Assembly (NCBI GenBank): GCA_029259535.1
Contig: JAPHEF010000001.1
Location: 21,399 to 85,398, forward strand
Origin: Candidatus Alkanophaga liquidiphilum
GTDB taxonomy: Archaea > Halobacteriota > Syntropharchaeia > Alkanophagales > B39-G2
Length of the DNA stretch: 64,000 nt
Direction of reading: 5' to 3'
How positions within the stretch are numbered: position 1 is the first letter of the stretch; each line of letters starts with the position of its first letter. The position numbers and the translations under genes were made by a program. A model generated the notes under the pieces. The model worked only from the letters and a program-made list of their open reading frames with translations. It had not been told where the DNA came from and ran no database searches. Shown here one piece after another: positions 6,640-61,663 of this stretch.

Positions 6640-7968
6640 ATGGGGGAGCTCATCTTGCTCGTCGGCTTTTCGCTCGTAGGCACGCTCATCGGTTTCTTCA
6701 CAGGCCTAATTCCTGGCATTCACGTGAATAACGTTGCGTTCACGCTTCTGACGCTGTCCCCAGCTATTTTTCGCATCATTGAAGGCTCGCCGCTGCCGCA
6801 AGGCTTTTTGCCGTTGTGCGTCGCATCTTTGGTGATCTCGGCATCCGTCGCTCATACCTTCTTGAGCTTTATTCCCACCGCCTTCTTCGGCGCCCCCGAG
6901 GGAGACACAGCCCTTTCCCTCCTTCCTGCGCACCACATGCTCCTTGAGGGGCGTGGCTACGAAGCCGTGTCGCTATCCGCAGTTGGGAGCTTTTGCGCTG
7001 TCGTCTCGGCGTTTCTACTGCTTCTCCCCTTTAAGTTTGTGTTTTCGGCGCCTCTGCACTTTTACGGCATACTGGACGCCGTCCTACTCTTTCTCCTACT
7101 GGGAATCTCGGCATTGCTTATCCTGACTGAAAGCTTTAACGAAAGACTTATGCCGATGCAAGCGGTCCTTTTAGCGCTTCTCGTTTTCATGTTATCTGGA
7201 GCGTTAGGGTATTCGATTCTGAATACGGAGCTTATGAACATCAGCAACGGTCTTTTCAATTCTTATCGAGTTTCTCTGCTCTTCCCAGCCCTCACGGGGC
7301 TTTTCGGCGTTGCATCTTTGCTGTATTCAGCGGCGCACGCCCCAGACATACCGGCACAGGTGTTAAAGGAGCCTGAAATTAATAAAAGCGAGCTTACGAA
7401 GTCAATAGCGGCAGGCACGCTTTTCGGAAGCGTCGTTGGTTTTCTTCCGGGAATCACGGCGGCGCATGCGACGGTATTTGCGATGCTCGCCCGTCGTAAC
7501 AGAGCGCCGGAGCAAATAATTCTAACACTCAGCAGCGTTAATACCGCCAACGCGATTTTCTGCACCGCTGCACTCTTTTTAATTCTGAAGCCAAGAAGTG
7601 GTGCGCTCATTGCGGTGAGCGAGCTCATAAGCGTAGAGCCTTGGGGAGGGATAATTCCACCACTGAGCCTCTGCTACCTCCTCATCTCAGTTCTGGTGGC
7701 GAGCTTCTTTTCCTATTTCGCAACAATGCTCGTGGGTAGACGACTCTCCGCAATTTTCACAAGGCTACCATACCAGCTTGTGGTCTTTGGCATTCTGACG
7801 CTGCTTTTCGCTCTCGTTTTTTTGTTTAATGGTGTTTTTGGCATGCTTGTCATGCTCGTTGCGACGTGCATAGGTCTTGTGCCCATTTATTTGGGCGTGC
7901 GGCGTTCGCACTGCATGGGAGTGTTACTGCTGCCGATAATCTTGTTCTATGCTAATATTTCACTGTAA
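6640..7968 (+). CDS. TctA/DUF112-family polytopic membrane protein
   Basis: The protein is highly hydrophobic with two internal repeats carrying a G..TGLIPGI / GFLPGIT motif, typical of the TctA duplication. Confidence 0.5.
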   Translation: MGELILLVGFSLVGTLIGFFTGLIPGIHVNNVAFTLLTLSPAIFRIIEGSPLPQGFLPLCVASLVISASVAHTFLSFIPTAFFGAPEGDTALSLLPAHHMLLEGRGYEAVSLSAVGSFCAVVSAFLLLLPFKFVFSAPLHFYGILDAVLLFLLLGISALLILTESFNERLMPMQAVLLALLVFMLSGALGYSILNTELMNISNGLFNSYRVSLLFPALTGLFGVASLLYSAAHAPDIPAQVLKEPEINKSELTKSIAAGTLFGSVVGFLPGITAAHATVFAMLARRNRAPEQIILTLSSVNTANAIFCTAALFLILKPRSGALIAVSELISVEPWGGIIPPLSLCYLLISVLVASFFSYFATMLVGRRLSAIFTRLPYQLVVFGILTLLFALVFLFNGVFGMLVMLVATCIGLVPIYLGVRRSHCMGVLLLPIILFYANISL

Positions 7969-9104
7969 ACACCAAGCGTCATTTTTGCGACATTATCCCA
8001 AGAGAAGAACTTTGCGGCTTTTCTGCCGTTTTCGCCCATCCTGCGTGCATGTTCGAAATTTGAAAATATTTCTTTGATGCCCCAGCTTATTGATTGTGGA
8101 TTGTCGTAAACCCTAAGCCCATTGATGCCGTGCTTGACGTATTCGAAGCCGTTCTGCGTCACGATTATCGGCTTACGGGCAGCCCACGCTTCGAGGGCGA
8201 CTATGCCGAAGGGCTCATTCCTTGAAGGTATGCAGACGACATCGCACGCCTTATACCACTTCCCGAGGTAATCTTCAGAAACATAGCCAAGGAACCTCGT
8301 AGCGTGCGCCACGCCCAGCTCCCACGCCCGACGTTCGAGCCAAGGACGCATGTGCCCGTCGCCTATGAACACGAACTTTGCATCCGGGAATTCTATCAAG
8401 ACAGAGGGGACCGCCTCTAAGAGTAAATCAGGCCCCTTCTGCACGACCATCCTGCCGACAAACAAGCAGACCGGGTCCCAGACACCAATACTGAGCCACC
8501 TTTTGACCTCCCAAGGGTCAACAGGCACGTCAAACTTATGCAACGAGACGCCGTTTGGAATTACTGCAATTTTCCAATCTTCGAACTTATAAATGCGCTT
8601 TATTTCCTCTTTCAGCGTCTGCGACGTCGTAATTATCTTGTTGGCGACGAAGCCGCCATACCATTCCAAATTCCGGATATGCCATGATTGCCCCTCATGG
8701 AAGGCATTACCGCACCGCCCGTATTCTGTGGAGTGCAGCGTGAACACGGTCCTCTTTCCGCGGGCGTTTTTTATCTCTGCGAGCGCGTTTGCGGTCATCC
8801 AGTCGTGACCATGAATTATGTCGAAATGCCCTGCGATGTTTTCCGTTTCAAAGAAATGCCAAGCGAAAGAGCGGCACATGTTGTTCATCTCCCCCACGAA
8901 GTTGGAGTTCAAATCGAAAGGGCATCGGTGGTAATGGACGCGGTCAATGACCTCATACTGCGGCTGCCCGTGCCCCATCCTCGTAAACACGTGAACCTCG
9001 TTTCCCAGCCTTTCAAGCGCAGCAGCGAGCTCCGTCACGTGGACGGCGACGCCTCCAACTTTGATGGAATGTAAAGATTCCCAACTGAACATTGCGATTC
9101 TCAT
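7947..9104 (-). CDS. glgA: Glycogen synthase (GT5-type, archaeal GlgA)
   Basis: MRIAMFSWESLHSIKVGGVAVHV matches the glycogen/starch synthase N-terminal KVGGL motif. The start was chosen at ATG 9104 (MRIAMF) rather than the longer ORF start at 9305. This sits 17 nt downstream of the NDP-sugar pyrophosphorylase gene. Confidence 0.8.
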   Translation of the reverse strand: MRIAMFSWESLHSIKVGGVAVHVTELAAALERLGNEVHVFTRMGHGQPQYEVIDRVHYHRCPFDLNSNFVGEMNNMCRSFAWHFFETENIAGHFDIIHGHDWMTANALAEIKNARGKRTVFTLHSTEYGRCGNAFHEGQSWHIRNLEWYGGFVANKIITTSQTLKEEIKRIYKFEDWKIAVIPNGVSLHKFDVPVDPWEVKRWLSIGVWDPVCLFVGRMVVQKGPDLLLEAVPSVLIEFPDAKFVFIGDGHMRPWLERRAWELGVAHATRFLGYVSEDYLGKWYKACDVVCIPSRNEPFGIVALEAWAARKPIIVTQNGFEYVKHGINGLRVYDNPQSISWGIKEIFSNFEHARRMGENGRKAAKFFSWDNVAKMTLGVYSEILA

Positions 9105-9120
9105 TTCCAACCCTGACTTC

Positions 9121-10605
9121 CTAACCAGCTCTCGGCGTTGAGTCCCGAATCTCAGCATTCGCATCCACGGCTTCGTCTCTGACCGCAGCGGCGAGGCGTC
9201 TTCGTAGAATCTCGATGAGGAGCGTCCTCGCACGTTCGCCTTTAACGCCACGCACCGCCTCTGCCAGCTTTTTCTCGCCAAAGATATGGCAAATCCACTC
9301 AGCAAAATCGTTAGTGCTGTTCCTAAGATGGTATTTTATTGAGCGTTCGTCAATAATTTTGAGAATTTCGACCAGCTCCTCAATGCTGTATGCCACGAAT
9401 CCGGTGTGGCGGACGGTGCCGTCGTCGTCCTGCAAGTTGAAGTAGAAAGCTTCTTCTTCAGGAACTCGACGGAGGAGCTTGTTCTTAAGCGGGGTCTTCG
9501 GGCGGGCGTGCTCGAACCTGACGAAGCGTCGCAGCTCGCCCTTGAGCTTCGAACCGTAGGAGAGGCTGACAAACGGCCAAACCTTACCCTCAGCGAGGAC
9601 AGCATCGTAGATGCTGCAATAAGGACCGACGACCGAATCCACGACTCTGGCGCCACTCCTTACCATTGAGCTTTCGCCGATGATGCTGCACTTCACATAT
9701 GCGGAAGCGATTTCAGAATCTTCGAATAGCACAGATGCATGCAGCTCGGCGGACTCGACGACCGCACCCTCGCCGATGACGGTGGGTCCGTAAATAACGG
9801 CATCGGCAACAACTGCGCCCTCGCCTATGAAAACATCTCCGTATATCTCAGCGTCTCGCAGCTCTGCATCATCGACTGCGGCAACGGGAGTGCCGCCAGC
9901 ACGCTTTTTCAGGAGCCAAGCCACCGCCCGCATGTAGCCATCGGGCTTGCCGACGTCCACCCAGAAGCCCTTGACCTCGCAGCCGTAAAGTTCGCCTTCT
10001 TGTGCCAAAATCGGGAACAAGTCCTTTGAGAAATCAAAAGAACATCGCTCAGGCACATACTCCAAAACGTCGGGCTCAATCACGTAAAGCCCTGTGTTTA
10101 TCAGATTGCTAAAACACTCTTCGGGTCTGGGCTTCTCCTTAAACCTCTTTACTACGCCCTCCTCATCTATTTCCACAATCCCATAATGGTAAGGGTCGTC
10201 CACGTGCATCAGAGCTATCGTGGCGAGGCGTCCATGCTTCTTGTGGAACTTAATAAGCTCTTTTAAGTTTATATCGGTGATGTTGTCGCCTTGAATTATG
10301 ACGGCGGTCTCGTCGAGACCGGCATTCTTGACGGAGCCTGCAGTGCCCAGCGGCTCCGGCTCTTCAGGATACGAGAGTTTAAGGTTTTTTGCCTCCCCAC
10401 ATTTGCTAAGATGCTCAATTATCATCTCCCGTAGGTAGTTCGTAGTGATGGTTATGCTTTTTATGCCATGTATCTTCAGATACTTGACAATATGCTCTAA
10501 TATTGGCTTATCGACCAGCGGGAGCAGAGGCTTCGGCCTCGTGAATGTCAAGGGGCGAAGCCTCGTTCCAAAACCACCCGCGAGAATCACAGCTTTCGAC
10601 GTCAT
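9121..10605 (-). CDS. Sugar-1-phosphate nucleotidyltransferase (NDP-glucose pyrophosphorylase) with left-handed beta-helix and ~110 aa C-terminal extension
   Basis: The N-terminal AVILAGGFGTRLRPLT motif (G-x-G-T-R) is present. Hexapeptide-repeat region is present. An extra C-terminal domain has no obvious match. Adjacent to glgA. Confidence 0.8.
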   Translation of the reverse strand: MTSKAVILAGGFGTRLRPLTFTRPKPLLPLVDKPILEHIVKYLKIHGIKSITITTNYLREMIIEHLSKCGEAKNLKLSYPEEPEPLGTAGSVKNAGLDETAVIIQGDNITDINLKELIKFHKKHGRLATIALMHVDDPYHYGIVEIDEEGVVKRFKEKPRPEECFSNLINTGLYVIEPDVLEYVPERCSFDFSKDLFPILAQEGELYGCEVKGFWVDVGKPDGYMRAVAWLLKKRAGGTPVAAVDDAELRDAEIYGDVFIGEGAVVADAVIYGPTVIGEGAVVESAELHASVLFEDSEIASAYVKCSIIGESSMVRSGARVVDSVVGPYCSIYDAVLAEGKVWPFVSLSYGSKLKGELRRFVRFEHARPKTPLKNKLLRRVPEEEAFYFNLQDDDGTVRHTGFVAYSIEELVEILKIIDERSIKYHLRNSTNDFAEWICHIFGEKKLAEAVRGVKGERARTLLIEILRRRLAAAVRDEAVDANAEIRDSTPRAG

Positions 10606-10751
10606 GACAAAAAAAGTAGCGTCTTTATCCTATATAAACCTTCTACGCCCTTCCCATATGCAAAAATTTTTCCTACAAGCCCTCTTTAACTCGCTATATG
10701 CAGCAAAAAGTGCAAGTCTGCAGGTGAAACTTGGTGGAGTAGTATATTATC

Positions 10752-13259
10752 TCAGTCGTGCTGCTCGCCCTGTTCAAAATCTTCACAAAGTGTCCTGAAT
10801 TCGCAAAATCTGCAAAAGCGGCGGGTGCCCTCCGGCGGCTTGTTCGTCACGAGCGCTCGGTGCAGCGCGCTCGCAAGCGCTTCGTATCTGCGGAGCGTCA
10901 TCTCCGCGCTGCTTAAATCCACCTCGAAACACTTGAACTGCCCTGTTTCGAGCGTCGCCGCCACTCGCATGCGTATTTTTTCTGGCTGCAAGAAGTCGCT
11001 GAGCTGCGGCGTCGGCTGCAGCTCGTAGTATATCAAAAGCGCACGCTCGTAGCCGCCCGCCGCTGCGTAGAACCGCACTTGTTCCTCGTCTTCGTGCAGC
11101 GGACCGTTCCTCAGGACGTAAGAGAAACTTCTTGGGCTCTTGGACTTGAACTCCACGACCTTGTCCCCGTCCACAGCGTCTATGCGACCAGCAAGTGTCA
11201 GCACGCCGTCTTCGGCTGTAAATTCCCATGCCACAGGCACTTCTCTCATGAAATAGCTTTCTTCGACGATTTCGTGGAACAGCCGCCCGATGAAAAGGCG
11301 GAAAGCATCTCCAAGGGTCGGTTTCCGCAGCACCCGCCGCCGGAACCACGAACGACGAAGACAGCCGCCGAGCTCTGAGACGTAAATTCTTTCGTCTTTG
11401 TATTCGTGTTTGGCGTCCTGCGATAGGACTTGCTCCATGAATCGCTTGAAGGCTGCGACTTCGTCGTTCGCCCAGCGGCATTCCTTCCAGCCATAAACCG
11501 AATGGCGCTCAAGACAGTAGTCTACAAAACTCCCAAGAAGACCGTTCTTATACGCAGAAAGCACGTTCCCGACGACTACGAGCTTGTAAACTGGGCGTGT
11601 GAAGGCGACGTTCAACCGGTTCGGGTCGGCGGCGAAGCTCATGTCCTCGGTGCTCGTCACGCTGAAAATGATTACATCTTTCTGCCGCCCCTGGAAAGCG
11701 TCCACGGTGTCCACTTCTAAGCCCCTGCTCCCCGTCTTGGCAAGCATCAAGCCCGCATCTTCCGCCATCGCTCTTATAAGCGTCTTCTGAGCGTCATACG
11801 GCGTTATTATGGCGATGCGCTCTTCAGCGTTTTTAAGGCACGCGACAAACATTCTTGCGAGCTGCACGCACGCCTCGGCTTCCACAACGTTGAGCTTTGA
11901 GCCACCTTTTTGCAGCTCCTTGCCTTCGACGTGGACGAACACCACTGGCATCTCTGGACTCAGAACCTCGCCCCGTTCGAGGGTTTGCCAGCCGCCGACG
12001 TCAAGGCTGAGCGAGTGGCAGCGCTCTGCAGGCGTAATTCTGCCCTCGTAGAAGTGGCGTTGCGAGAAGCTGATGATTTCAGCGTGACTGCGGTAGTGTC
12101 GCTCAAGCCAGAGGCTCCGCCCCGGATATTTGCGTAGCAAGTGGTTAAAGGCGCTGTAGCGTTCCTGCCTGCGTTTTCCCCCTTGTCCCCTAAAGATGGG
12201 TAGCATTTGCTTGTGGTCGCCGATGAAGACCCATTTTTTCGCCTTAAGCGCGCCGAGGAGCGCCAACGGTATCGAAGCTTGGCTGCACTCGTCTATGAAC
12301 ACCGTATCGAACGTCACGTCGCGCAATGGAAAGAGTTGCGACTTTATGAGCGTCGCGCCGATGATTGGCGTCGTTGCGATGAGACGCTCGCTCTCTTCCC
12401 TAAGGAGGCGGCTGCGCTCTGAAAGCGTCCGGCTCAGCTCCTCGACGCTCGCCCACGATGAGATGCGACGCCGCAGCTCTTTCAAACGCCCGCCGAGCGC
12501 AGCCTCCACCCGCCTTCCCAACAAATATTCCTTGCGCAATACTTTTTCGGGGCGTCCGACCCGCAACGCCACGCTCAGCGGCAGGTTCTCGATGGCTGTG
12601 TCCACCGCCCTATTCGTATGCGACGTTATCAAAACCTTCTCGCCCCGCTTCGTAAGCTCGTAGGCAGCTTTAGCTATCACCTGAGTCTTCCCCGTCCCCG
12701 GCGGTCCTATTATCAAAATAAACTCGCCCTCAGCAAGCGAAAGGACACTTTCAACAGCTTTCACCTGCGAAGCGTCAAGAACGGCATCTGTAAGCTCTCC
12801 ACTCTTGAAAATACGCTTATCTTTTAGCGTCGTAGCTCTTTTCAGCTCAGAAAGCCTCAAATCACCAAACATCAGCTCGTAAAGGCGCCCTTCAATTTCA
12901 GTCCTGCCAGTCCAAACCCTCTGCAATGCCTCAAGCTGCAAATCATAGCTTATTAAGGACTCGGACTCGAAAATTTGGAGTTCATCGCCGACATGGAAGC
13001 CGGACGCCTCCATAAAGACGGCAAGCGTGTTCGGACGTGCTTCGACTACGACGCCCAACCTCTCCACGTCCTCGGAAGCGACGTAGCCGACGACGTCGCC
13101 GACGTCGAGCCGCAGACCGCCGCCGCACTCCAGCACGGCTACGCTCCCTGAAACCCCAGAAATCTTAGCAGGCGTCGCCTGCCGCAGCGCCCGCTCCCGT
13201 AACTCCCGCTCCGCAAGCCCCCGCTCCTCCTCAATTATCCTCGCAAGCTCCTCTAGCAT
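10752..13259 (-). CDS. Upf1/Dna2-like SF1B helicase fused to C-terminal Cas4/RecB-type Fe-S PD-(D/E)xK nuclease, with N-terminal barrel-like domain
   Basis: Helicase motifs are Walker A GPPGTGKT, motif II IDECSQ, GDHKQMLP, and VDAFQGRQKDVIIFS. The C-terminal nuclease domain is a DUF83-type Cys4 Fe-S PD-(D/E)xK module. It has SELGGC (Cys1), D...VVEFK, QVRFY and a terminal CRFCEFRTLC (CxxCx5C). Confidence 0.8.
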   Translation of the reverse strand: MLEELARIIEEERGLAERELRERALRQATPAKISGVSGSVAVLECGGGLRLDVGDVVGYVASEDVERLGVVVEARPNTLAVFMEASGFHVGDELQIFESESLISYDLQLEALQRVWTGRTEIEGRLYELMFGDLRLSELKRATTLKDKRIFKSGELTDAVLDASQVKAVESVLSLAEGEFILIIGPPGTGKTQVIAKAAYELTKRGEKVLITSHTNRAVDTAIENLPLSVALRVGRPEKVLRKEYLLGRRVEAALGGRLKELRRRISSWASVEELSRTLSERSRLLREESERLIATTPIIGATLIKSQLFPLRDVTFDTVFIDECSQASIPLALLGALKAKKWVFIGDHKQMLPIFRGQGGKRRQERYSAFNHLLRKYPGRSLWLERHYRSHAEIISFSQRHFYEGRITPAERCHSLSLDVGGWQTLERGEVLSPEMPVVFVHVEGKELQKGGSKLNVVEAEACVQLARMFVACLKNAEERIAIITPYDAQKTLIRAMAEDAGLMLAKTGSRGLEVDTVDAFQGRQKDVIIFSVTSTEDMSFAADPNRLNVAFTRPVYKLVVVGNVLSAYKNGLLGSFVDYCLERHSVYGWKECRWANDEVAAFKRFMEQVLSQDAKHEYKDERIYVSELGGCLRRSWFRRRVLRKPTLGDAFRLFIGRLFHEIVEESYFMREVPVAWEFTAEDGVLTLAGRIDAVDGDKVVEFKSKSPRSFSYVLRNGPLHEDEEQVRFYAAAGGYERALLIYYELQPTPQLSDFLQPEKIRMRVAATLETGQFKCFEVDLSSAEMTLRRYEALASALHRALVTNKPPEGTRRFCRFCEFRTLCEDFEQGEQHD

Positions 13260-13269
13260 TTTTACTAAT

Positions 13270-13308
13270 TTTTACAAAATGTCGCTAAGAAAGCTTATGG
13301 TTTTAACC
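13270..13308. repeat. Intergenic motif copy A (ttttacaaaatgtcgctaagaaagcttatggttttaacc)
   Basis: This copy lies between the CaCA gene end and the helicase-nuclease start. It is 33/39 identical to copy C. Confidence 0.5.
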
Positions 13309-13428
13309 ATGAGATGGTGGGGGTCACACGTCCCCAAAAAGAGTTTCTTGTTTCAAATTAATGTGTTAATTTCACCGCTTTTCTGCTGCTTTTCTGTTGG
13401 CAGCAAGGCAACTTGGTGACGCGTCAAA

Positions 13429-14355
13429 TCAAAACAGGACGTAATTGATGCAGATGAAGATGGCGTAAGTGGCTACAAGGGCGATGCCTTCGAGCCTGCT
13501 CAGCTCATGCTTAGTTCGGATGAAAATCAGGAGCAAAACGGCTGTGAAAAGCATCATGGGAATATTCCAGAAGAAAAGAGCGGTATCAACGCCAAGCGGG
13601 CGTATCAGGCTTGAAAGCCCGACCACTAATGCAGCGTTGAACGTGTTGCTGCCGAGGATGTTCCCGATGGAGATGCCGCCATGCCGTTTCACCGCTGCGT
13701 TTACTGAGACTGCGAGTTCGGGCGCGGAGGTTCCGAAGGCGACAAGCGTGCTGCCTATTACCGACTCAAGAATGTTGAAGGATACGGCAATGCTTACCGC
13801 AGAATCCACTAAAAGTTTTGCTCCCAAAAAGATGCCAAAACCCCCTAAACAAAGTTTCAAACACACCATCACGCAGTTAAACTCCATGTCTCTATCCCTC
13901 GCTACTACCCCGCCGCCCCCCCGCCGCCTGAGAGTTGCCATGTATAAGAGGAACACCGCGAGAAGGGCGCAGCCATCTAATCTTGAAATGCCTTGGAGAG
14001 ACAACGCCGTAAGCAGCGTAGAGATGCTGAGCATCACAAGCCCGTCTTTCACAACCCCTTCATCCGTCGCAAGCGGGATTATGGCGGCGCAGATGCCGAG
14101 GATGGCGACGTTCGTGATGTTGCTGCCGACAACTGTGCCGACGGCAATCCCGCTGCTGCCGACGGCAGCGGCGTAGAGCGATGTCGCAAGCTCCGGCGCC
14201 GAAGTCCCGAAGGCGACGAGCGTCAGCCCGATGACCATTTCCGAGATATTAAAACGTCTCGCAACCACCGTAGAAGATGCGACGAAGGCGTCCGCCGCCA
14301 GTATCAGCACGAAAAGCCCCACAAAAAGCAGAACGAAAGACACTACGACAGACAT
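13429..14355 (-). CDS. Ca2+/cation antiporter (CaCA family, YrbG-like) membrane protein
   Basis: Two alpha-repeat signatures are present (GSNITNVAILG and GNILGSNTFNAALVVG). About 10 TM helices. Confidence 0.8.
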   Translation of the reverse strand: MSVVVSFVLLFVGLFVLILAADAFVASSTVVARRFNISEMVIGLTLVAFGTSAPELATSLYAAAVGSSGIAVGTVVGSNITNVAILGICAAIIPLATDEGVVKDGLVMLSISTLLTALSLQGISRLDGCALLAVFLLYMATLRRRGGGGVVARDRDMEFNCVMVCLKLCLGGFGIFLGAKLLVDSAVSIAVSFNILESVIGSTLVAFGTSAPELAVSVNAAVKRHGGISIGNILGSNTFNAALVVGLSSLIRPLGVDTALFFWNIPMMLFTAVLLLIFIRTKHELSRLEGIALVATYAIFICINYVLF

Positions 14356-28647: not shown

Positions 28648-29085
28648 ATGCCGAGGCAGAAACAAAGAAGACGCAAAGGCAAACGGAATTACCTCGTTTA
28701 CAAGGAGCTTGAGTTTATAGTCGAGGAGATGAATCGTGAAGTAGATGCAGTTATCGTCGAGGGTTCTCACGACAGGACGGCGTTGGAGTTGCTGGGTTTC
28801 AGAAAAGACATGCTCTTGTATTCAGAGTCGAAGCTCTCGGATGGCGACTTCGTCGAGCTCGTCAGCCAGAAGTATGAGCGTGTTGTCATCCTCACCGATT
28901 ACGACAGAGACGGAAAAAGCTTTAACAAAAAACTTTCAGAACGCCTCCAGAGGCGTGGAGTCTGCATCGAGCGCACATATCGAGATAAAATAGGCAAATT
29001 GCTGGGACAGTGCGGCATCAAGGACATAGAATCAATATCCGCACTCAAAAAGCGAGTTTTCGACTTTTGCTACGAGATGCCTTAA
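28648..29085 (+). CDS. Small Toprim-domain protein (COG1658-like, RNase M5/primase-like Toprim)
   Basis: VIVEGSHDRTAL (the E in the first motif) and ILTDYDRDGK (DxD) match Toprim catalytic motifs. Confidence 0.65.
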   Translation: MPRQKQRRRKGKRNYLVYKELEFIVEEMNREVDAVIVEGSHDRTALELLGFRKDMLLYSESKLSDGDFVELVSQKYERVVILTDYDRDGKSFNKKLSERLQRRGVCIERTYRDKIGKLLGQCGIKDIESISALKKRVFDFCYEMP

Positions 29086-29102
29086 ATCTTAACAACAAAT
29101 GC

Positions 29103-29130
29103 TTACAGAATGTCGCTAAGAAAGCTCATA
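29103..29130. repeat. Intergenic motif copy B (ttacagaatgtcgctaagaaagctcata)
   Basis: This copy lies in the convergent gap after the Toprim gene. It shares aatgtcgctaagaaagct with copy A. Confidence 0.5.
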
Positions 29131-29133
29131 CCT

Positions 29134-29505
29134 TTAGGGTTGAGATAGGGGAGGGAGTTTGGGAGTTGAGTTTTTATATTGCCCGTAATCCGCAGTTGTT
29201 TCTATTTCTGCTATAAACACATTAGAGGCATCTTCGTGCTTCATAAAGGCGATATTTGGCGGTCCTGGCGGCTCCTCGCTGGTGCCAAAGTAATATATGA
29301 GGTGCCCTTCTACCTCTTCTGCGCCACTTGCCTCTAAGGTATATGCCGTGATGGTTATTGTTGTACCGCCGTCCACATCTGCAGTAACCATGTAGATGTC
29401 TTCTTTTGGGTCTATGGGCGTTGGCTTCTCAGCCATCGCTGACGAGAGCAGAAGCGGGAGTAGCAACCCCAGCACTAACAACGTTACGGACGCATCCCTA
29501 CTCAC
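29134..29505 (-). CDS. Hypothetical secreted protein (signal peptide)
   Basis: The N-terminal LLVLGLLLPLLLSSAMA resembles a signal peptide. No recognisable domain was found. Confidence 0.35.
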   Translation of the reverse strand: MSRDASVTLLVLGLLLPLLLSSAMAEKPTPIDPKEDIYMVTADVDGGTTITITAYTLEASGAEEVEGHLIYYFGTSEEPPGPPNIAFMKHEDASNVFIAEIETTADYGQYKNSTPKLPPLSQP

Positions 29506-33183: not shown

Positions 33184-34698
33184 ATGAAAGAAGAACATAA
33201 ATATCTTCTCATAATTGCAGTGGTATTCGCTCTGGTTATCGGAGGGATTCTTTCTGTGCCGTATGACCCACAAGCAGACATTGTTGATGCGGTTTCAATT
33301 GATACATGGGCGCACCTATATATTGACGGTATATACAAGATGCCCCTATATGAGTTTCTGGAAAAGTATCCTAGAGCGTTACAGAGCGGTGTGATCGAAG
33401 AAGACGGCGAGTATTATGTTGTGACGGAGAAGGGAATTGGTTATGTTTTATTCTACGCATTGATGATAGCATTGGGCATTCAACGATTTACGGGGACAAT
33501 TCTCGCTTTGATTGCCGTAGTATCTACCTACATCCTTTCAAGAAGGCTTTTTGGCGTGAGATGTGCTGCGTTATCCACCATACTGCTTCTTACGACAGGA
33601 ATTGCGATGATTATGACTTATCGTTATGCATGGGTCGATTACGGGACGATGGCGTTCCTTGTGCTTTCAATCTGCCTCTTTATAGAGGGTGTTGCTCGAA
33701 AGAGTTCGGTGCTATGTCTTTTGTCGGGGTCTGTCTTCTCTGTGGCTGTATCGACCCGCTACCCGGTGGGGCTGCTCGTTGTTCTCCCATTTGTTTACCT
33801 ACTGGTAAAAGAGGCTCCAAGGATGAAGCTTATAGTGGCATTCTGTATCGGGCTTTTAATACTCTTAACACCTCTCCTGTGGTATAACACCATTACCTAT
33901 GGTGGCCCTTTCAAGTCGGGCTATGATGTTCGCCGTCTTGGCGACTTCGTGCGTGGTGAACATGAAATTGAGTTGGGAGAGGGGGAGGGGGCGTCAAAAT
34001 ACTGGAGCATCGAAGGTGCGGTTGATAATCTTACAGACGTTCCGCAGATGTTTCTTATCGCAATGCCAGTCTTTTATCTAGCGTTTTTCGGGCTTTACAG
34101 GTCTTATAAGGATAATAAAGCTGGGTTTTACCTTTTATTTTCCTGGATAACACTTACAATGATTCTTTACTTCCCGATGGGGCATCTTGGAGGTGTGGGG
34201 TTACAAGCACTTCAGCAAGTGCGGTATTTCCTCCCGATGCTTCCAGCACTCTGCATCTTCGGGGCAAATGCACTTTCAGGTCTTTTTTCAAAGGGAAAAT
34301 ATGGAGGAATTCTTGTGGCGGCTCTGCTGATAATATTGGCTGGAGTAGGTGTCTCTGCAACAATATGGAATATGCATACATGGGATGCGACTGGAAGGTT
34401 TAAAGAGATTGACGTAGACCTTAAATCCCTATATGAGAACCCATCAGCCTTTAACAACGGGATCGTCACCTTAAGGCACTTGATCGTGATTAAATATGTG
34501 AGAGGTGGCTTAATCGTAAAAGATTCTACCACATTCGAGGATATGCTTCTTTGTTTCCCCAGACCACCTCCACAGAGCGTGAAGGAGCTTGATAGAATCA
34601 CAGGTAAGTTCATCTGGAAGGATCGAAATCAGAATGGGAGTATGGAGAGAGGAGAAGGTGTTATTATGGTAAAGGAGATTCGCTGGGTGCTCCCATGA
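33184..34698 (+). CDS. Polytopic membrane protein, GT-C-type glycosyltransferase-like (ArnT/PMT-like), putative
   Basis: About 11 TM helices in the N-terminal two-thirds, with a soluble C-terminal domain. The architecture is like ArnT/PMT-type membrane glycosyltransferases. No diagnostic catalytic motif was verified. Confidence 0.4.
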   Translation: MKEEHKYLLIIAVVFALVIGGILSVPYDPQADIVDAVSIDTWAHLYIDGIYKMPLYEFLEKYPRALQSGVIEEDGEYYVVTEKGIGYVLFYALMIALGIQRFTGTILALIAVVSTYILSRRLFGVRCAALSTILLLTTGIAMIMTYRYAWVDYGTMAFLVLSICLFIEGVARKSSVLCLLSGSVFSVAVSTRYPVGLLVVLPFVYLLVKEAPRMKLIVAFCIGLLILLTPLLWYNTITYGGPFKSGYDVRRLGDFVRGEHEIELGEGEGASKYWSIEGAVDNLTDVPQMFLIAMPVFYLAFFGLYRSYKDNKAGFYLLFSWITLTMILYFPMGHLGGVGLQALQQVRYFLPMLPALCIFGANALSGLFSKGKYGGILVAALLIILAGVGVSATIWNMHTWDATGRFKEIDVDLKSLYENPSAFNNGIVTLRHLIVIKYVRGGLIVKDSTTFEDMLLCFPRPPPQSVKELDRITGKFIWKDRNQNGSMERGEGVIMVKEIRWVLP

Positions 34699-34699
34699 T

Positions 34700-34738
34700 T
34701 TTTACAAGATTTCGGCGAGAAAGCTTATGGTTTGAACC
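34700..34738. repeat. Intergenic motif copy C (ttttacaagatttcggcgagaaagcttatggtttgaacc)
   Basis: This copy lies immediately 3' of the GT-C gene stop, in a convergent gap before valS. Confidence 0.5.
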
Positions 34739-34916
34739 GAATCGCCGTTAGGTTTATATATTGTTTGCAATTTTGTTATTAGCGAGGCTGCGGGTATATC
34801 CTGCAGTCAGGGGCTGCGGTGAGCCAGCCCCGTCGTGAAGCTCGGCTCCGGAGCGGTGCTCCTCAAGGAGTCTGGGCGGAGAGGCGTGAAGCTCCCGGCT
34901 TTAGCCGTGGAGTAGC

Positions 34917-58214: not shown

Positions 58215-58286
58215 TGGACCGGTCGGGATTTGAACCCGAGGCCTCTCGCACGCCAAGCGAGCGATCTTCCGCTGATCTACCGGCCC
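58215..58286 (-). tRNA. tRNA-Ala (anticodon GGC)
   Basis: The minus-strand sequence is GGGCCGGTAGATCAGCGGAAGATCGCTCGCTTGGCGTGCGAGAGGCCTCGGGTTCAAATCCCGACCGGTCCA. It folds as a cloverleaf with 7-bp acceptor, D and T arms (GGTTCAAATCC). The anticodon loop is TTGGCGT and the G3:U70 Ala identity pair is present. CCA is not encoded. Confidence 0.85.
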
Positions 58287-58451: not shown

Positions 58452-59504
58452 ATGCCAGAGGAGATGAGTCATAGGGAGAGGTTGTTTGCGGCGTTCGAGC
58501 GGAGTTCTTATGACCGGGCGCCGTGTCCGGGGATTACGCAGACCGGGACGGTCGAGCTGATGGAGGCGAGCGGCGCTTTCTTCCCGGAGGTGCATTGGGA
58601 CGCTGAGAAGATGGCGAAGCTGGCGTGGGCGGCTTTCGAACATGCCGGACTCGAAGGCATCCGTGTCCCGTTCATCATTTACACCGAAGCGCTCGCCGTC
58701 GGCACTGAGCTTTTCAAATGGGAGAAGGACAACATGCCGATGGTGAAAAAATACCCATTCAGTAGCGTCGAGGAGGCTGCCGAGAAGTTAGAAGTCCCGA
58801 ATCCGAGAGAAGCTGAGAGCATGCGGGTTGTGCTGGACGCCATCGAGCTCTTAAAGCCAAAATGCGATGCTGAGAAGCTACCGCTGACCGGGCACGCCGT
58901 TGGCGCATTCCTCTTAGCCTTTGGCGTCGTGGATTTCATGAACGCCATGATAGCATTCAAGAAGAGCCCTGAAAGCTTTAGGGAAATCTGGGAGAAGACA
59001 AAAGAGCTTGTAATAACGTGGTCGGAGGCAATGATTGACGCCGGCGCCGACGTCATTTTTTACAACTGCGCAGCGCTCGGCAACTTCAGACCCGACGACT
59101 ACGAAAAACACGGGTTTTCTATTGACCGGGAGTGCATACGGAAAATAAAGGAAAAGGGGGCTTATGTGCTGGTCCACGTCTGTTCGGACATAAGGCCGGT
59201 GCTGGACCACGTGGTGAAGTTAGGGGCGGATGCTATTTCCGTGTCGGAAGTGGTGAAGATGGAGGATATTAGGAAGCGGGTCGGCGACGACGTCACGCTG
59301 ATGGGGAACGTGAACCAAGTATTCACGCTGATAAAGAGGGGGCCTGAGGAGGTCATGGCGGAGGCGAAGGCGTGTATAGAGGCGGGGACGGACATTCTGG
59401 CGCCGGGGTGCGGTTTCGGGACGAAGACGCCGCTCGCAAACATGCGTGCGATGGTGGATGCGGCTAAGAAATATGGGCACCTCGCCAGACTCGCTGGGAA
59501 ATAA
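58452..59504 (+). CDS. MtaA/MtbA-like methylcobamide methyltransferase (MT2; uroporphyrinogen-decarboxylase fold, Zn-dependent), paralog 1
   Basis: The 350 aa protein has URO-D-like N-terminal RERLFAA...RAPCPGITQTGTVELMEA. Zn-ligand contexts are VHVCSD (H-x-C) and APGCGFG. Confidence 0.75.
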   Translation: MPEEMSHRERLFAAFERSSYDRAPCPGITQTGTVELMEASGAFFPEVHWDAEKMAKLAWAAFEHAGLEGIRVPFIIYTEALAVGTELFKWEKDNMPMVKKYPFSSVEEAAEKLEVPNPREAESMRVVLDAIELLKPKCDAEKLPLTGHAVGAFLLAFGVVDFMNAMIAFKKSPESFREIWEKTKELVITWSEAMIDAGADVIFYNCAALGNFRPDDYEKHGFSIDRECIRKIKEKGAYVLVHVCSDIRPVLDHVVKLGADAISVSEVVKMEDIRKRVGDDVTLMGNVNQVFTLIKRGPEEVMAEAKACIEAGTDILAPGCGFGTKTPLANMRAMVDAAKKYGHLARLAGK

Positions 59505-59546
59505 TGCGGAAGAATTAAAACAGCGTCAGAATAAACAGGTGGTTGT

Positions 59547-60605
59547 ATGCCAGAGGAGATGAGTCATAGGGAGAGGTTGTTTGCGGCGTTCGAGCGGAGT
59601 TCTTATGACCGGGCGCCGTGTCCGGGGATTACGCAGACCGGGACGGTCGAGCTGATGGAGGCGAGCGGCGCTTTCTTCCCGGAGGTGCATTGGGACGCTG
59701 AGAAGATGGCGAGGCTGGCGTGGGCGGCTTTCGAACATGCCGGACTCGAAGGCGTCCGTGTCCCGTTCATCATTTACACCGAAGCGCTCGCCGTCGGTGT
59801 CGAGCTTGAGAAGTGGGCGAAGGACAACATGCCGATGGTCAAGAAGTTCGCGTTCGACAGTGTTGAGGAAATAGCCGAGAGGATGGAGATACCAGACCCG
59901 CAGACGGCGCCAAGCATGAAAGTCGTGCTGGATGCCATTAAGATTTTAAAGCCGAAGTGCGACGATGCGAAGCTTCCGATAACCTGCCACGTCGGCAGTG
60001 CGTTCGTTGGCGCCTTCCTCGGCATCGTGGACATGATGAAAGCCATGATAACATTCAAGAAGAACCCTGAGGTCTTCGGCGGCGTCTTCGAGAAGACGAA
60101 GCAATTGGCACTGACGTGGGCGGAAGCCGCTATCGAGGCGGGGAGCGATGTTATTTTCTACAACTGTGCTCCGCTTGGCAACTTTAGACCCACCGACTAT
60201 GAGAAATATGGGCTTCCTGTGGACAAGGAGTGCGTAAAGAAAATAAAGGACATGGGCGCCTACGTCGTCGTGCACGTCTGTTCGGACATAAGGCCGGTGC
60301 TGGACCACGTGGTGAAGTTAGGGGCGGATGCCATTTCCGTGTCGGAAGTGGTGAAGATGGAAGATATTAGGAAGCGGGTCGGCGACGACGTCACGCTGAT
60401 GGGGAACGTGAACCAAGTATTCACGCTGATAAAGAGGGGGCCTGAGGAGGTCATGGCGGAGGCGAAGGCGTGTATAGAGGCGGGGACGGACATTCTGGCG
60501 CCGGGGTGCGGTTTCGGGACGAAGACGCCGCTCGCAAACATGCGTGCGATGGTCGAGGCGGCTAAGAAATATGGGCACCTCGCCAGACTCGCTTCGGGGG
60601 CGTAA
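59547..60605 (+). CDS. MtaA/MtbA-like methylcobamide methyltransferase (MT2), paralog 2
   Basis: The first ~330 nt and last ~340 nt are near-identical at the DNA level to paralog 1. The central ~380 nt are divergent. Confidence 0.75.
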   Translation: MPEEMSHRERLFAAFERSSYDRAPCPGITQTGTVELMEASGAFFPEVHWDAEKMARLAWAAFEHAGLEGVRVPFIIYTEALAVGVELEKWAKDNMPMVKKFAFDSVEEIAERMEIPDPQTAPSMKVVLDAIKILKPKCDDAKLPITCHVGSAFVGAFLGIVDMMKAMITFKKNPEVFGGVFEKTKQLALTWAEAAIEAGSDVIFYNCAPLGNFRPTDYEKYGLPVDKECVKKIKDMGAYVVVHVCSDIRPVLDHVVKLGADAISVSEVVKMEDIRKRVGDDVTLMGNVNQVFTLIKRGPEEVMAEAKACIEAGTDILAPGCGFGTKTPLANMRAMVEAAKKYGHLARLASGA

Positions 60606-60607
60606 AA

Positions 60608-61663
60608 ATGGGAGATGAGATGAATTATAGGGAGCGGCTATTTGCCGCTTTAGACCAGAATCCGGTGGACCGGGCGCCGTGTCCGGGGATTACGCAGACC
60701 GGGACGGTCGAGCTGATGGAGGCGAGCGGCGCCTTCTTCCCGGAGGCGCATAAGGACGCTGAGAAGATGGCGAAGTTGGCGTGGGCGGCTTTCGAACATG
60801 CCGGACTCGAAGGCATCAGAATTCCTTTTATTGTTTATACCGAGGCGAGTGCGCTTGGCACAAGGCTTTACAAGTGGAAGAAAGACACGCAGCCCATGGT
60901 TGAAGAAGTTCCAATAAAGAGCCCAGAGGACATAGACAAGCTGGAAATTCCAGACCCGAGAGATGCGGAGTTGCCGTCTGTGGTGTTAAAGGCGATTGAG
61001 ATTTTGAAGCCGAAGTGCAACGCCGCAAAGCTGCCGCTGACTGTCATGGTGATAGCGCCGGCGACGATGTCGCTCGGTGGTGCTTTGGTTGACATAATGA
61101 AGGTGATGATGTGGGTGAAGACGAACATAGATGACACGGTGAAGCTTGCCAAAAAAGTAAGCGAGATGAGTCTCGCATTCGCTGAGGCAGTCGTGGACGC
61201 CGGCGCCGACGTCATCTTCTACAACGTTGGCATTTCCAGCAGGGTGAAAGAGTATCCTGAGGTCTTCTTCCCCATAGACAAAGAGGTCGCAGGCAAAATA
61301 CGGAAGATGGGCGTTTACATGGTTGCGCACCACTGCTCAGATCCAAGGCGGATAATAAACGAGCTTGCGAGTCTCGGCGCTCACGGATTGTCCATCCCGG
61401 AGCCGCAGATGATTCCCGTGCGGGAGGCACGTGAGCTCGTCGGCGACCGTGTGGCGCTCGTCGGCGGACTGGACCAGTTGCACACCCTGATAAAGAAGAG
61501 CCCAGAGGATGTGATGGAACAAGCAAAGACGGCGATAGAAGAGGGTATAGACGTGCTGGCGCCGGGGTGCGGTTTCGGGACGAAGACGCCGCTCGCAAAC
61601 ATGCGTGCGATGGTGGAGGCGGCTAAGAAATATGGGCACCTCGCCAGACTCGCTAAGAAGTAG
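60608..61663 (+). CDS. MtaA/MtbA-like methylcobamide methyltransferase (MT2), paralog 3 (more divergent)
   Basis: It shares identical ~80-nt (60661-60740) and ~100-nt (61558-61655) terminal blocks with paralogs 1 and 2. HHCSD and APGCGFG zinc contexts are retained. It starts 2 nt after the paralog 2 stop. Confidence 0.75.
   Translation: MGDEMNYRERLFAALDQNPVDRAPCPGITQTGTVELMEASGAFFPEAHKDAEKMAKLAWAAFEHAGLEGIRIPFIVYTEASALGTRLYKWKKDTQPMVEEVPIKSPEDIDKLEIPDPRDAELPSVVLKAIEILKPKCNAAKLPLTVMVIAPATMSLGGALVDIMKVMMWVKTNIDDTVKLAKKVSEMSLAFAEAVVDAGADVIFYNVGISSRVKEYPEVFFPIDKEVAGKIRKMGVYMVAHHCSDPRRIINELASLGAHGLSIPEPQMIPVREARELVGDRVALVGGLDQLHTLIKKSPEDVMEQAKTAIEEGIDVLAPGCGFGTKTPLANMRAMVEAAKKYGHLARLAKK

Follow-up and report, generated by a model that had tools for sequence, protein, structure and literature searches.

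The gene at positions 10752 to 13259 on the minus strand of the window (the whole 64,000-nucleotide stretch of Candidatus Alkanophaga liquidiphilum DNA that was analysed) is real and intact and encodes a Upf1/IGHMBP2-type motor that carries, at its C-terminal end, an iron-sulfur DNA nuclease of the Cas4 type. The explanation favoured here, with a probability of about 0.45, is that the protein acts as a single-chain helicase-nuclease in genome maintenance; the biochemical core of this explanation, an active SF1B motor and an active Cas4-type DNA nuclease within one chain, is likely when taken by itself. The fusion is very rare, having been seen only in a few alkane-oxidising archaea, and it represents an unusual, though not unprecedented, kind of helicase-nuclease.

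The gene and its reading frame

A preliminary description of this DNA had proposed an 835-aa reading frame with an SF1B Upf1-like motor preceding a complete Cas4-type Fe-S nuclease. The frame and all of the cited motifs proved genuine on inspection of the ORF list and motif positions, and the two-part architecture was borne out by Pfam and by the motifs. Matches of the protein to AAA_12 (2.8e-41), AAA_11 (1.3e-27) and PDDEXK_1 (5.4e-10) all exceeded the Pfam gathering scores, indicating that these domain assignments were not due to chance. Only two residues, F471L and Q830R, differed between the window protein and database cluster P0001.

At least 8 independent contigs, drawn from four sources (JGI, ENA, NCBI and Logan), carried the same fused architecture, arguing against a fusion created by chimeric assembly. 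The catalytic motifs of both domains were intact and conserved at 46 to 78% identity, arguing against a decaying gene or an inactive remnant. These two lines of evidence together effectively refute an explanation by artefact or decay. The GC and GC3 values of the helicase and nuclease halves fell within the spread of values measured for other genes of the window, and a foreign composition of the gene was rejected on these grounds.

The helicase part

Residues 1 to 590 constitute a complete Upf1/IGHMBP2-like SF1B helicase in which motifs I, Ia, II, III, IV, V and VI are all intact. The features of the gene and of this part are as follows.

10752..13259, minus strand: complete coding sequence of the fusion protein (from the ORF list; ATG start, 835 aa plus stop codon)
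12780..13259, minus strand: aa 1-160, N-terminal stalk helix followed by a beta-barrel of six strands (about aa 29-98) and by return helices, a Upf1/IGHMBP2-type domain 1B plus stalk
12165..12779, minus strand: aa 161-365, RecA-like domain 1A (Pfam AAA_11/AAA_19/AAA_30; invariant alignment columns)
12684-12707, minus strand: Walker A, GPPGTGKT, aa 185-192, domain 1A
Domain 1A: motif Ia, ITSHTNRAVD
Domain 1A: helical insertion, aa ~245-296
12279-12296, minus strand: motif II, IDECSQ, aa 322-327, domain 1A
Domain 1A: motif III, GDHKQMLP, aa 347-354
11490..12164, minus strand: aa 366-590, RecA-like domain 2A (Pfam AAA_12 at aa 368-565, E 2.8e-41)
Domain 2A: motif IV, HYRS
11661-11705, minus strand: motif V, VDAFQGRQKDVIIFS, aa 519-533, domain 2A
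Domain 2A: motif VI, LNVAFTRP

Scores of 141.7 bits for AAA_12 and 97.7 bits for AAA_11 were obtained against Pfam cut-offs of 27, and the SF1B motifs were invariant in an alignment of fused and unfused homologues. The UvrD-helicase model matched the Walker A region only (aa 177-225, E 2.1e-5), the core being of the AAA_11/AAA_12 type. Upf1, IGHMBP2 and Dna2 were the top PDB matches by both sequence and fold, with sequence matches to the motor of 1.2e-37, 2.3e-28 and, for the helicase part of Dna2, 1.3e-27. The NCBIfam model of the IGHMBP2 family, TIGR00376, gave a whole-protein score of 247.1 bits (E 3.5e-73), below the curated cut-off of 348.9; as judged by this comparison, the window protein is a relative, not an equivalog, of that family.

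The N-terminal ~170 aa had been regarded as an extra, unassigned domain, and no Pfam model of its own matches aa 1-160. This view did not survive further analysis. Positions 58-241 of the TIGR00376 profile align co-linearly to aa 50-243, and the AF2 model places a helix at aa 2-27, six strands at aa 29-98 and helical structure at aa 100-131, with block-mean pLDDT values of 64-88 over the barrel and first helix, falling to 54 in the return helices. The region is present in all unfused homologues and is shared by hundreds of archaeal proteins of ~610 aa, and Foldseek alignments of the full-length model with chains of Upf1, IGHMBP2 and Dna2 spanned 625-657 columns. Taken together, the profile, model, homologue and Foldseek evidence identifies the N-terminal ~170 aa as the canonical stalk plus 1B barrel, a 1B beta-barrel carried on stalk helices being predicted with only moderate model confidence.

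The nuclease part

The remaining residues form a nuclease domain with the following features.

10755..11489, minus strand: aa 591-835, Cas4-family PD-(D/E)xK nuclease domain with a predicted four-Cys (Fe-S) site
11361-11363, minus strand: C633, the N-terminal Cys of the four
Minus strand: H662, nuclease domain
11178-11180, minus strand: D694, nuclease catalytic set
11145-11153, minus strand: E703-K705, ExK
Minus strand: Q727/Y731, QxxxY
10785-10814, minus strand: C816/C819/C825, the three C-terminal Cys

These residues lie within SELGGC (628-633), GRIDAV (691-696), VVEFKS (701-706), QVRFY (727-731) and CRFCEFRTLC (816-825). The domain therefore carries the residue set of the Cas4 family (D, ExK, QxxxY, one N-terminal and three C-terminal Cys), and it also has the Cas4 fold. 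Among 89 nuclease sequences the C, D, C, C and C of this set were invariant and the K, Q and Y were at least 90% conserved. The preliminary description had staked its reading on conservation of the catalytic and Cys residues and on the lack of an established function for the architecture; these residues were kept in orthologues down to 46% identity, and the orthologues were without any functional annotation.

The best structural and profile match of the domain was the CRISPR-associated Cas4 protein SSO0001 (PDB 4ic1), which would be consistent with a CRISPR adaptation accessory, the nuclease and helicase making prespacers for a CRISPR-Cas system elsewhere in the genome. Such a role is very improbable. 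The Cas4-specific models were not reached (TIGR00372, 26.9-32.1 bits versus a cut-off of 65; PF01930, E 0.21), the broader PF12705 PDDEXK_1 model being passed with 42 bits versus 22; cas1, cas2 and arrays were absent near all of the fused and solo copies examined; and about half of Cas4-family genes are solo, outside CRISPR loci (PMC5704561).

The nearest relatives of the nuclease domain were all DNA nucleases, namely, Cas4, Dna2, EXO5, MGME1, RecE/lambda exonuclease and AdnAB/AddAB. This finding bears on whether the protein is an RNA-directed enzyme, in which a Upf1/IGHMBP2/Sen1-like RNA helicase would be combined with a nuclease for RNA surveillance, decay or R-loop removal. The nearest solved structures of the motor are indeed those of the RNA helicases Upf1 and IGHMBP2, but Upf1-like motors act on DNA too, as established for IGHMBP2 and for Dna2, which is itself among the matches. 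An RNA-directed role is hence unlikely, and DNA is the probable substrate.

The upstream intergenic motif

The recurrent intergenic motif reported to sit immediately upstream of the gene is genuine, with 3 copies in the window versus 0 expected in a repeat and pattern search.

13264..13323, minus strand: copy of the recurrent intergenic motif (~60 nt), with the core AGCTTTCTTAGCGACATTTTGTAA at 13272-13295 and its end 4 nt ahead of the ATG

The motif may hold the promoter of the fused gene, yet it is not gene-specific. Elsewhere in the window it occurs twice, each time in a gap where convergent genes end and without an ORF following it, and the exact pattern was absent from all 28 fetched loci, including the upstream region of the A. 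volatiphilum-type orthologue; a regulatory element belonging to the fused gene alone was rejected on this evidence. The motif had no Rfam match and formed a weak hairpin only. Separately, CACCAAGTT occurred after two stop codons (two matches versus 0.27 expected) and was treated as a chance occurrence.

Distribution and descent

The fusion was found in only four 90%-identity clusters among about 5.8 billion, in Ca. Alkanophaga and one further lineage, and all three of the Alkanophagales-type variants found carried it (P0001, P0002 and P0003). Relatives of the nuclease domain were sought by an exhaustive HMMER profile search. In neighbour-joining trees without support values, the four fused proteins formed one clade by their helicase parts, and the nucleases fell into an Alkanophaga group and a group of fused cluster P0004 plus solo genes of ANME-1, a grouping that fits long vertical inheritance. 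No relative of the nuclease domain was detected on viral contigs in a scan of IMG/VR, and a viral origin of this domain was rejected.

Within Methanophagales (ANME-1), the sister order, the closest relatives of the nuclease are stand-alone genes of roughly 229-260 aa, located beside housekeeping-type genes in two genera. The window nuclease is 35-37% identical to these solo genes, well under the reported genome-wide AAI of 55-59%, and so their orthology is uncertain. The flanks available, spanning 15 nt to about 8 kb upstream, contained no helicase match near the ANME-1 solo nucleases, and a split operon with nuclease and helicase as neighbours was rejected for these loci. P0121 stands as a gene of its own, being preceded by in-frame stop codons. 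In both ANME-1 genera a 501-525-aa gene lies convergently downstream of the solo nuclease at an equal distance, homology being judged by eye. Either a widespread archaeal Upf1-like helicase was fused to a lineage-specific solo-Cas4-like nuclease, or an ancestral fusion was later split in ANME-1.

Gene neighbourhoods and cellular role

The gene had been described as standing alone without cas neighbours, in agreement with a neighbourhood of housekeeping type: genes for a CBS protein, a tubulin/FtsZ-family protein, TctA, a glycosyltransferase, an NTP-transferase, a Na/Ca exchanger, GH15, a thermosome subunit and diphthamide synthase. Neither cas nor defence genes lay within about 8 kb, and no tandem arrays were found. 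Every fused gene (in the window, at the A. volatiphilum-type loci L003 and L012 and at the P0004 loci) had neighbours of a housekeeping or otherwise unremarkable kind, and markers of defence, cas or mobile elements were absent from all of these loci. A conserved small partner gene upstream was considered and rejected, as the 79-103-aa ORFs seen in several loci were mutually unrelated (blastp E > 0.1); the window has no ORF of this size directly upstream of the fused gene.

The unfused helicase relatives (40-49% identity) were situated differently, with defence or mobilome markers within 7 kb in 6 of the 8 sampled. These markers were GmrSD (twice); DpnII plus a methyltransferase and HerA; DUF499 plus an SNF2 helicase, an IS element and HsdM; type I R-M plus TA genes; and AbiEi/AbiEii. 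Proximity to R-M, GmrSD, AbiE, TA or IS genes speaks for a role of the helicase family in defence, the sample being small and without a background control. The fused protein could, by extension, be a single-protein defence or anti-plasmid effector, in which the helicase would sense nucleic acid that is foreign or aberrant (replication intermediates or free 5' tails, for example) and track along it, leaving its destruction to the Cas4-type nuclease. This is a serious possibility, albeit one that falls short of an even chance. The strongest prokaryotic HMM matches of the helicase core were to defence proteins (MkoA, 3.9e-62; PLuB helicase-like protein, 4.8e-53; ProA), with MkoC at 9.2e-47, and the arrangement is analogous to those of Mokosh type II, in which a COG1112 helicase likewise precedes a nuclease, Hhe, the UvrD-Cas4 fusions, which are predicted to act in defence (PMC5704561), and Nhi, a validated single-enzyme nuclease-helicase immunity protein. 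The fusion is, moreover, patchy as well as rare, and its gene occupies different loci, without synteny, in the window species and the congeneric A. volatiphilum. Against such a role, the fused genes have no defence neighbours, the composition gives no sign of recent transfer, relatives were not found on the IMG/VR viral contigs and both halves appear to be vertically inherited. The PADLOC/NCBIfam matches, furthermore, cover the generic helicase core only, and PLD, STK, DUF4011 and Vsr are absent among the matches listed.

A housekeeping role is suggested by the location of the fused genes among housekeeping or unremarkable genes and by a composition within the range of the measured window genes. 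The presence of the gene in all three Alkanophagales-type variants, the tree groupings that fit vertical inheritance and the housekeeping-type surroundings of the ANME-1 solo nucleases point the same way. Genome maintenance is, therefore, slightly favoured over single-protein defence.

Proposed mechanism

The motor of aa 1-590 is catalytically intact and, on analogy with characterised relatives, would bind single-stranded nucleic acid and translocate 5'->3' with ATP. The C-terminal 245 aa would cleave single-stranded DNA from or near free 5' ends or flaps, following the precedent of Cas4, Dna2, EXO5 and AddB. We propose that the motor loads on a 5' single-stranded tail or flap and then unwinds or strips, while the covalently attached nuclease degrades the strand engaged by the motor; a Dna2-like activity would thus be obtained from the opposite domain order. 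The cellular role would be genome maintenance, in the form of 5'-end resection or of flap or stalled-fork processing, in thermophilic Ca. Alkanophaga. The full-length AF2 model was poor (mean pLDDT of 61.6, with the nuclease and parts of domain 2A below 50); hence, no model supports a geometry for the coupling of motor and nuclease, and the inter-domain geometry was discarded.

Comparison with known systems

Helicase-nuclease fusions act in DNA end resection (RecBCD, AddAB and Dna2) and in recently described immune systems (Mokosh, Nhi, Hhe and Druantia). The closest relatives of the motor are unfused archaeal Upf1/IGHMBP2-like helicases of ~590-700 aa ("predicted DNA helicase", COG1112/TIGR00376-like), which resemble the whole of the first 590 aa with invariant motifs but lack the C-terminal nuclease and are uncharacterised. 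In eukaryotic and archaeal Dna2 and in the bacterial Dna2-like protein Bad, the nuclease is N-terminal; the reversed order noted in the preliminary description was upheld by the Pfam order and motif positions. No match to the Pfam Dna2 model (PF08696) was present among the matches listed, and the window nuclease is nearer to solo or CRISPR Cas4 than to Dna2. It has the four Cys and the D/ExK/QxxxY set in common with SSO0001 and solo-Cas4, but it lacks a CRISPR association and, unlike the solo-Cas4 relatives, which are stand-alone proteins of about 200-260 aa and include the ANME-1 genes, it is the C-terminal domain of a helicase.

The helicase-then-nuclease order is not new for the Upf1-like clade. 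In Mokosh type II (MkoC) a COG1112/Upf1-like helicase is followed by a C-terminal nuclease within a single polypeptide, but the nuclease is of the PLD family, the system is bacterial and the profile is much longer (1136 positions). The window protein matched Mokosh through its helicase core only (MkoA at profile positions 611-1081; MkoC in three stretches, the best at 768-944), with neither the PLD nuclease nor the STK of type I; no PLD or kinase Pfam match was found among the 25 of 31 families listed. The Hhe combination of DUF4011, helicase and Vsr-like endonuclease/DUF3320 was likewise lacking, the match being restricted to about 90 aa of the helicase core (33.3 bits versus an NCBIfam cut-off of 2000). 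UvrD-Cas4-like fusions of the pfam12705 branch, which occur either on their own or in defence settings (Hudaiberdiev et al. 2017, PMC5704561), also have a C-terminal Cas4-like PDDEXK_1 nuclease; they carry an SF1A UvrD-like motor (3'-5') from another helicase clade, in place of the AAA_11/AAA_12 core, and represent an independent fusion event. AddAB, AdnAB and RecBCD are bacterial heteromers whose nuclease-bearing subunits carry SF1A-type motors, whereas no second subunit is evident for the window protein.

The fusion might be taken as a "Rosetta stone," such that archaeal Upf1-like helicases and solo-Cas4 nucleases would form one machine, an inverted-order analogue of Dna2 that evolved independently, was inherited vertically in Alkanophagales/ANME-1 and was split in ANME-1. 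This is doubtful; if true, solo-Cas4 would gain a partner and an activity, the motor-fed degradation of 5' single-stranded DNA for resection or for destroying foreign replication intermediates. If the fusion is merely a lineage-specific joining of two common modules, there would be a modest gain in annotation for Ca. Alkanophaga genomes. If the two domains are coupled, as we infer, the protein would provide a natural experiment on how domain order relates to the strand end met by a motor-fed nuclease, would point to a partner for the many functionally uncharacterised solo-Cas4 genes and, since these alkane-oxidising archaea grow at about 70 degrees C, would make available a helicase-nuclease that is both compact and thermostable. 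The parts list is that of Dna2, an SF1B motor plus a Cas4-type Fe-S nuclease, assembled in the opposite order, and the helicase lineage drawn upon otherwise lacks nucleases and is abundant in archaeal variable regions.

The fused helicase-nuclease gene

The motifs quoted in the preliminary description were all located at defined positions of a single reading frame, whose helicase half spans aa 1 to 590 and nuclease half aa 591 to 835.

Reading frame and motifs of the fused gene
10752..13259, minus strand: helicase-nuclease ORF, 835 codons (ORF listing)
aa 185-192: Walker A, GPPGTGKT (helicase half)
aa 211-220: motif Ia, ITSHTNRAVD (helicase half)
aa 322-327: motif II, IDECSQ (helicase half)
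aa 347-354: motif III, GDHKQMLP (helicase half)
aa 388-391: motif IV, HYRS (helicase half)
aa 519-533: motif V, VDAFQGRQKDVIIFS (helicase half)
aa 549-556: motif VI, LNVAFTRP (helicase half)
aa 628-633: SELGGC (nuclease half)
aa 660-663: LFHE (nuclease half)
aa 691-696: GRIDAV (nuclease half)
aa 701-706: VVEFKS (nuclease half)
aa 727-731: QVRFY (nuclease half)
aa 816-825: CRFCEFRTLC (nuclease half)

Pfam matches to AAA_11 (1.3e-27), AAA_12 (2.8e-41, aa 368-565) and PDDEXK_1 (5.4e-10, aa 574-826) each exceeded the gathering score, and the same fused frame recurred on contigs of independent origin (JGI, ENA, NCBI and Logan assemblies), ruling out both a chance reading frame and an assembly chimera. 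The window protein differed at two residues from P0001, one of the 90%-identity protein clusters. The gene is shown, as judged from its predicted protein, to encode an SF1B Upf1-like motor with intact motifs followed by a covalently joined, intact Cas4-type nuclease.

The helicase half

The best solved relatives by sequence were Upf1 (1.2e-37, query aa 103-585), IGHMBP2 (2.3e-28) and the helicase part of Dna2 (1.3e-27); an RNA-directed activity is considered a minor alternative. The best curated prokaryotic model for this half was the IGHMBP2-family model TIGR00376, matched with 247 bits and hence below its equivalog cut-off of 349.

The N-terminal 170 aa, for which Pfam held no specific model, had been described as an extra domain. 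Instead, alignment detected this region in every unfused archaeal homologue of ~590 to 700 aa, with invariant positions including G54, D55, G69, E100, L102 and I103, and TIGR00376 positions 58 to 241 matched aa 50 to 243 co-linearly. The AF2 model contained one helix at 2-27, then six strands within 29-98 and further helices at 100-131, with block-mean pLDDT values of 64 to 88 through the barrel and down to 54 in the return helices, and Foldseek aligned 625 to 657 columns of the model with Upf1, IGHMBP2 and Dna2 chains. These observations indicated that the N terminus is canonical rather than an added domain. Its helix-barrel-helices arrangement is the stalk plus 1B barrel typical of Upf1-like SF1B helicases, as known from the solved structures of Upf1 and IGHMBP2.

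The nuclease half

When searched alone, aa 598-835 (a 238-aa query) matched PDDEXK_1 (1.1e-10), while Cas4-specific sequence models were matched below cut-off only. When 1.84 billion cluster representatives were searched exhaustively with a HMMER profile, 971 relatives of the nuclease domain were detected; almost all of the 150 best listed were stand-alone proteins of about 200 to 250 aa, the only fused representative among them being the Alkanophagales cluster. The Cys, Asp and Lys residues singled out beforehand proved to be conserved in an alignment of 89 nuclease sequences, with C633, D694, C816, C819 and C825 invariant and K705, Q727 and Y731 conserved at 90% or above. A profile of this alignment matched Cas4 SSO0001 (4ic1; 4e-25) and Cas4 Pcal_0546 (4r5q; 3.4e-13) and, more weakly, type I-C Cas4 (8d3l; 1e-9), the Dna2 nuclease domain (2.2e-5) and EXO5. 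The domain modelled from the alignment (pLDDT 90.3, pTM 0.86) had 4ic1 as its top Foldseek match (E 5e-10, target TM 0.72-0.75). Conserved residues, profile matches and model together indicate that this half is a bona fide Cas4-family nuclease, predicted to be of the Fe-S type, with an intact active site.

Distribution and origin of the fusion

About 5.8 billion protein clusters were searched twice by word index, once with the window protein and once with P0004 (the most divergent fused protein) as query; PF12705 followed this helicase in four clusters only, with 18 member sequences together.

Fused clusters and identity to the window protein
P0001: about 100%, fused
P0002: 78%, fused
P0003: 76%, fused ('Candidatus Alkanophagales archaeon')
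P0004: 46%, fused

Scanned with the nuclease-domain alignment, GTDB species genomes and JGI metagenomes yielded the fused form from Ca. Alkanophaga volatiphilum (L012) and from metagenome contigs L018 (the window species) and L019. On this sampling the fusion is confined to a very narrow archaeal lineage. The same scans detected a stand-alone nuclease gene of 35 to 38% identity in Methanophagales (ANME-1), at loci of Ca. Methanoxibalbensis ujae (L013) and Methanophagales AOM70-1 (L014) and at L004 and L020-L023. These ORFs ranged from 229 aa (L014) up to 260 aa as listed (L013); their available flanks contained no helicase match, and the solo cluster P0121 (229 aa) had in-frame stops directly upstream. 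The only seemingly conserved neighbour of the solo gene was a convergent gene of 501 to 525 aa that looked conserved by eye between two ANME-1 genera:

L013, 8718-10295, minus strand: convergent gene following the solo gene
L014, 8717-10222, minus strand: convergent gene following the solo gene

A partial nuclease-domain relative at a contig edge (L024, 5001-5273) had 45% identity to the window protein, above the ANME-1 solo genes, and no helicase match within 5 kb upstream; it may represent an intermediate solo lineage.

In neighbour-joining trees, the four fused proteins formed one clade (helicase region, 120 homologues) and the Alkanophaga nuclease was sister to P0004 plus the ANME-1 solo genes. 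These topologies suggest a single fusion event, possibly in a common ancestor of Alkanophagales and Methanophagales, after which ANME-1 would have split the gene or lost its helicase part; since neither tree has support values, this direction is tentative. Between Alkanophaga and ANME-1 the nuclease is 35-37% identical, well under the reported genome AAI of 55-59% (PMC10322722), so strict orthology is not established.

Gene context and cellular role

The fused gene lay between a Na+/Ca2+ exchanger gene and an NTP-transferase/glycosyltransferase pair, with genes for GH15, a thermosome subunit, diphthamide synthase, TctA, a tubulin/FtsZ-family protein and a CBS protein farther out. A search of the window for tandem arrays was negative, and an Rfam scan returned one tRNA and nothing else. 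No cas or defence genes lay within about 8 kb of the fused gene; a role in CRISPR adaptation is a minor alternative. Both gene halves had GC and GC3 values inside the span set by the other measured genes of the window. The orthologue on A. volatiphilum-type contigs was located between YjeF and H+-pyrophosphatase, neither of which is present in the 64-kb window, so the two species are not syntenic at this locus. P0004 adjoined a PKD-repeat surface protein and small unknown ORFs.

The suggested search for defence islands gave a divided result: every fused copy seen had a non-defence context, whereas defence or mobilome markers were present within 7 kb of 6/8 unfused relatives, a small sample with no background control.

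Markers beside unfused relatives
P0005: two GmrSD_N genes, DpnII plus methyltransferase, HerA
P0006: DUF499, SNF2/NOV_C helicase, IS element, HsdM fragment
P0014: type I R-M genes, HepT/MNT, DUF433/DUF5615
P0010: N6_N4 methyltransferase, AbiEi, RadC
P0093: AbiEii
P0095: GmrSD

The other two were a Ferroglobus tandem pair beside XPB and a gene among housekeeping genes. Unfused relatives at L005-L010, L015, L016, L026 and L027 recurrently lay beside GmrSD (DUF262), R-M, AbiE, TA or DUF499/SNF2 genes. This recurrence suggests that archaeal Upf1-like helicases may, as a family, be preferentially located in defence islands. The Ferroglobus association is repair-like, unlike these contexts:

L017 (Ferroglobus placidus CP001899.1), 7001-13799: tandem pair of unfused helicase paralogues, directly followed by an XPB/Rad25-type helicase and a 400-aa gene

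Genome maintenance is slightly favoured as the cellular role, with a probability of roughly 0.45, because of the non-defence contexts, the presence of the fused gene in 3/3 Alkanophagales-type variants seen, its apparent vertical inheritance and the location of the ANME-1 solo relatives among housekeeping-type genes in two genera. A somewhat less probable reading is that of a single-protein defence effector, for which the neighbourhoods of the unfused relatives, the non-syntenic locus, the growing number of validated helicase-nuclease immune proteins (e.g., Mokosh and Nhi) and the similarity of the helicase core to MkoA, MkoC and the PLuB helicase-like protein (strong) and to ProA and Hhe (weaker) all argue; the contexts of the fused copies speak against it.

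Repeated intergenic element and other features

The recurrent motif noted immediately upstream of the gene was recovered as a ~60-nt element with three copies in the window against 0 expected:

13264-13323, minus strand: abuts the helicase ATG
29095-29154, minus strand: between convergent gene ends, no ORF downstream
34694-34753, minus strand: between convergent gene ends, no ORF downstream

Its core, AGCTTTCT-N3-CGA-N-AT-N2-TGTAA, was preceded by a small hairpin with some compensatory changes. The element had no Rfam match and did not occur in any of the 28 loci fetched; it may serve as a protein-binding site or as the promoter of small RNAs that are not annotated. Other features of the window were as follows:

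28648-29085, plus strand: 145-aa ORF, Toprim-like by eye, ending 10 nt before an element copy
56-58 kb: low-GC stretch (GC 0.425) with a SAM-methyltransferase-like ORF, directly before the tandem paralogues
58215-58286, minus strand: tRNA preceding the tandem paralogues
58452-61663, plus strand: three paralogues of about 350 aa each in tandem, the copies 76-96% identical at the DNA level, MtaA/URO-D-type methyltransferase-like by eye

Proposed mechanism and comparison with known systems

SF1B and Upf1-like helicases move 5'->3' on single strands, and the Cas4, Dna2, EXO5 and AddB nucleases, which bind an Fe-S cluster by the same Cys pattern, cleave ssDNA at free ends or close to them, in most cases at the 5' end. 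The enzyme would load on 5' ssDNA tails or flaps and couple translocation and unwinding to degradation of the loaded strand. In Dna2 the nuclease precedes domain 1A; here it follows domain 2A and so may lie on the motor's trailing (5') side, for the placing of which the full-length AF2 model (mean pLDDT 61.6) was too weak.

In searches of open-access literature text, no Upf1-like helicase carrying a Cas4-type nuclease at its C terminus was found described. Helicase-nuclease fusions are already known, and this one would not greatly surprise a specialist; as a Rosetta stone for solo Cas4 nucleases and the abundant archaeal Upf1-like helicases, it is a reasonable biochemistry target. The central observation of the preliminary description was borne out, while its extra domain was not and its domain order has a precedent within the clade: Mokosh type II has the same helicase clade and helicase-then-nuclease order, but its nuclease is a PLD. 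Dna2 has the opposite order; AddAB, AdnAB and RecB, like the UvrD-Cas4 fusions (Hudaiberdiev et al., PMC5704561), have UvrD-like SF1A motors rather than a Upf1-like SF1B motor; Hhe requires DUF4011 and a Vsr-like nuclease; and Cas4 shares the fold and residues of the window nuclease, which scores under Cas4-specific cut-offs and is not CRISPR-associated. By analogy, the fused protein probably works like Dna2 or the AddAB/RecB-type helicase-nucleases yet is a member of none of these families.
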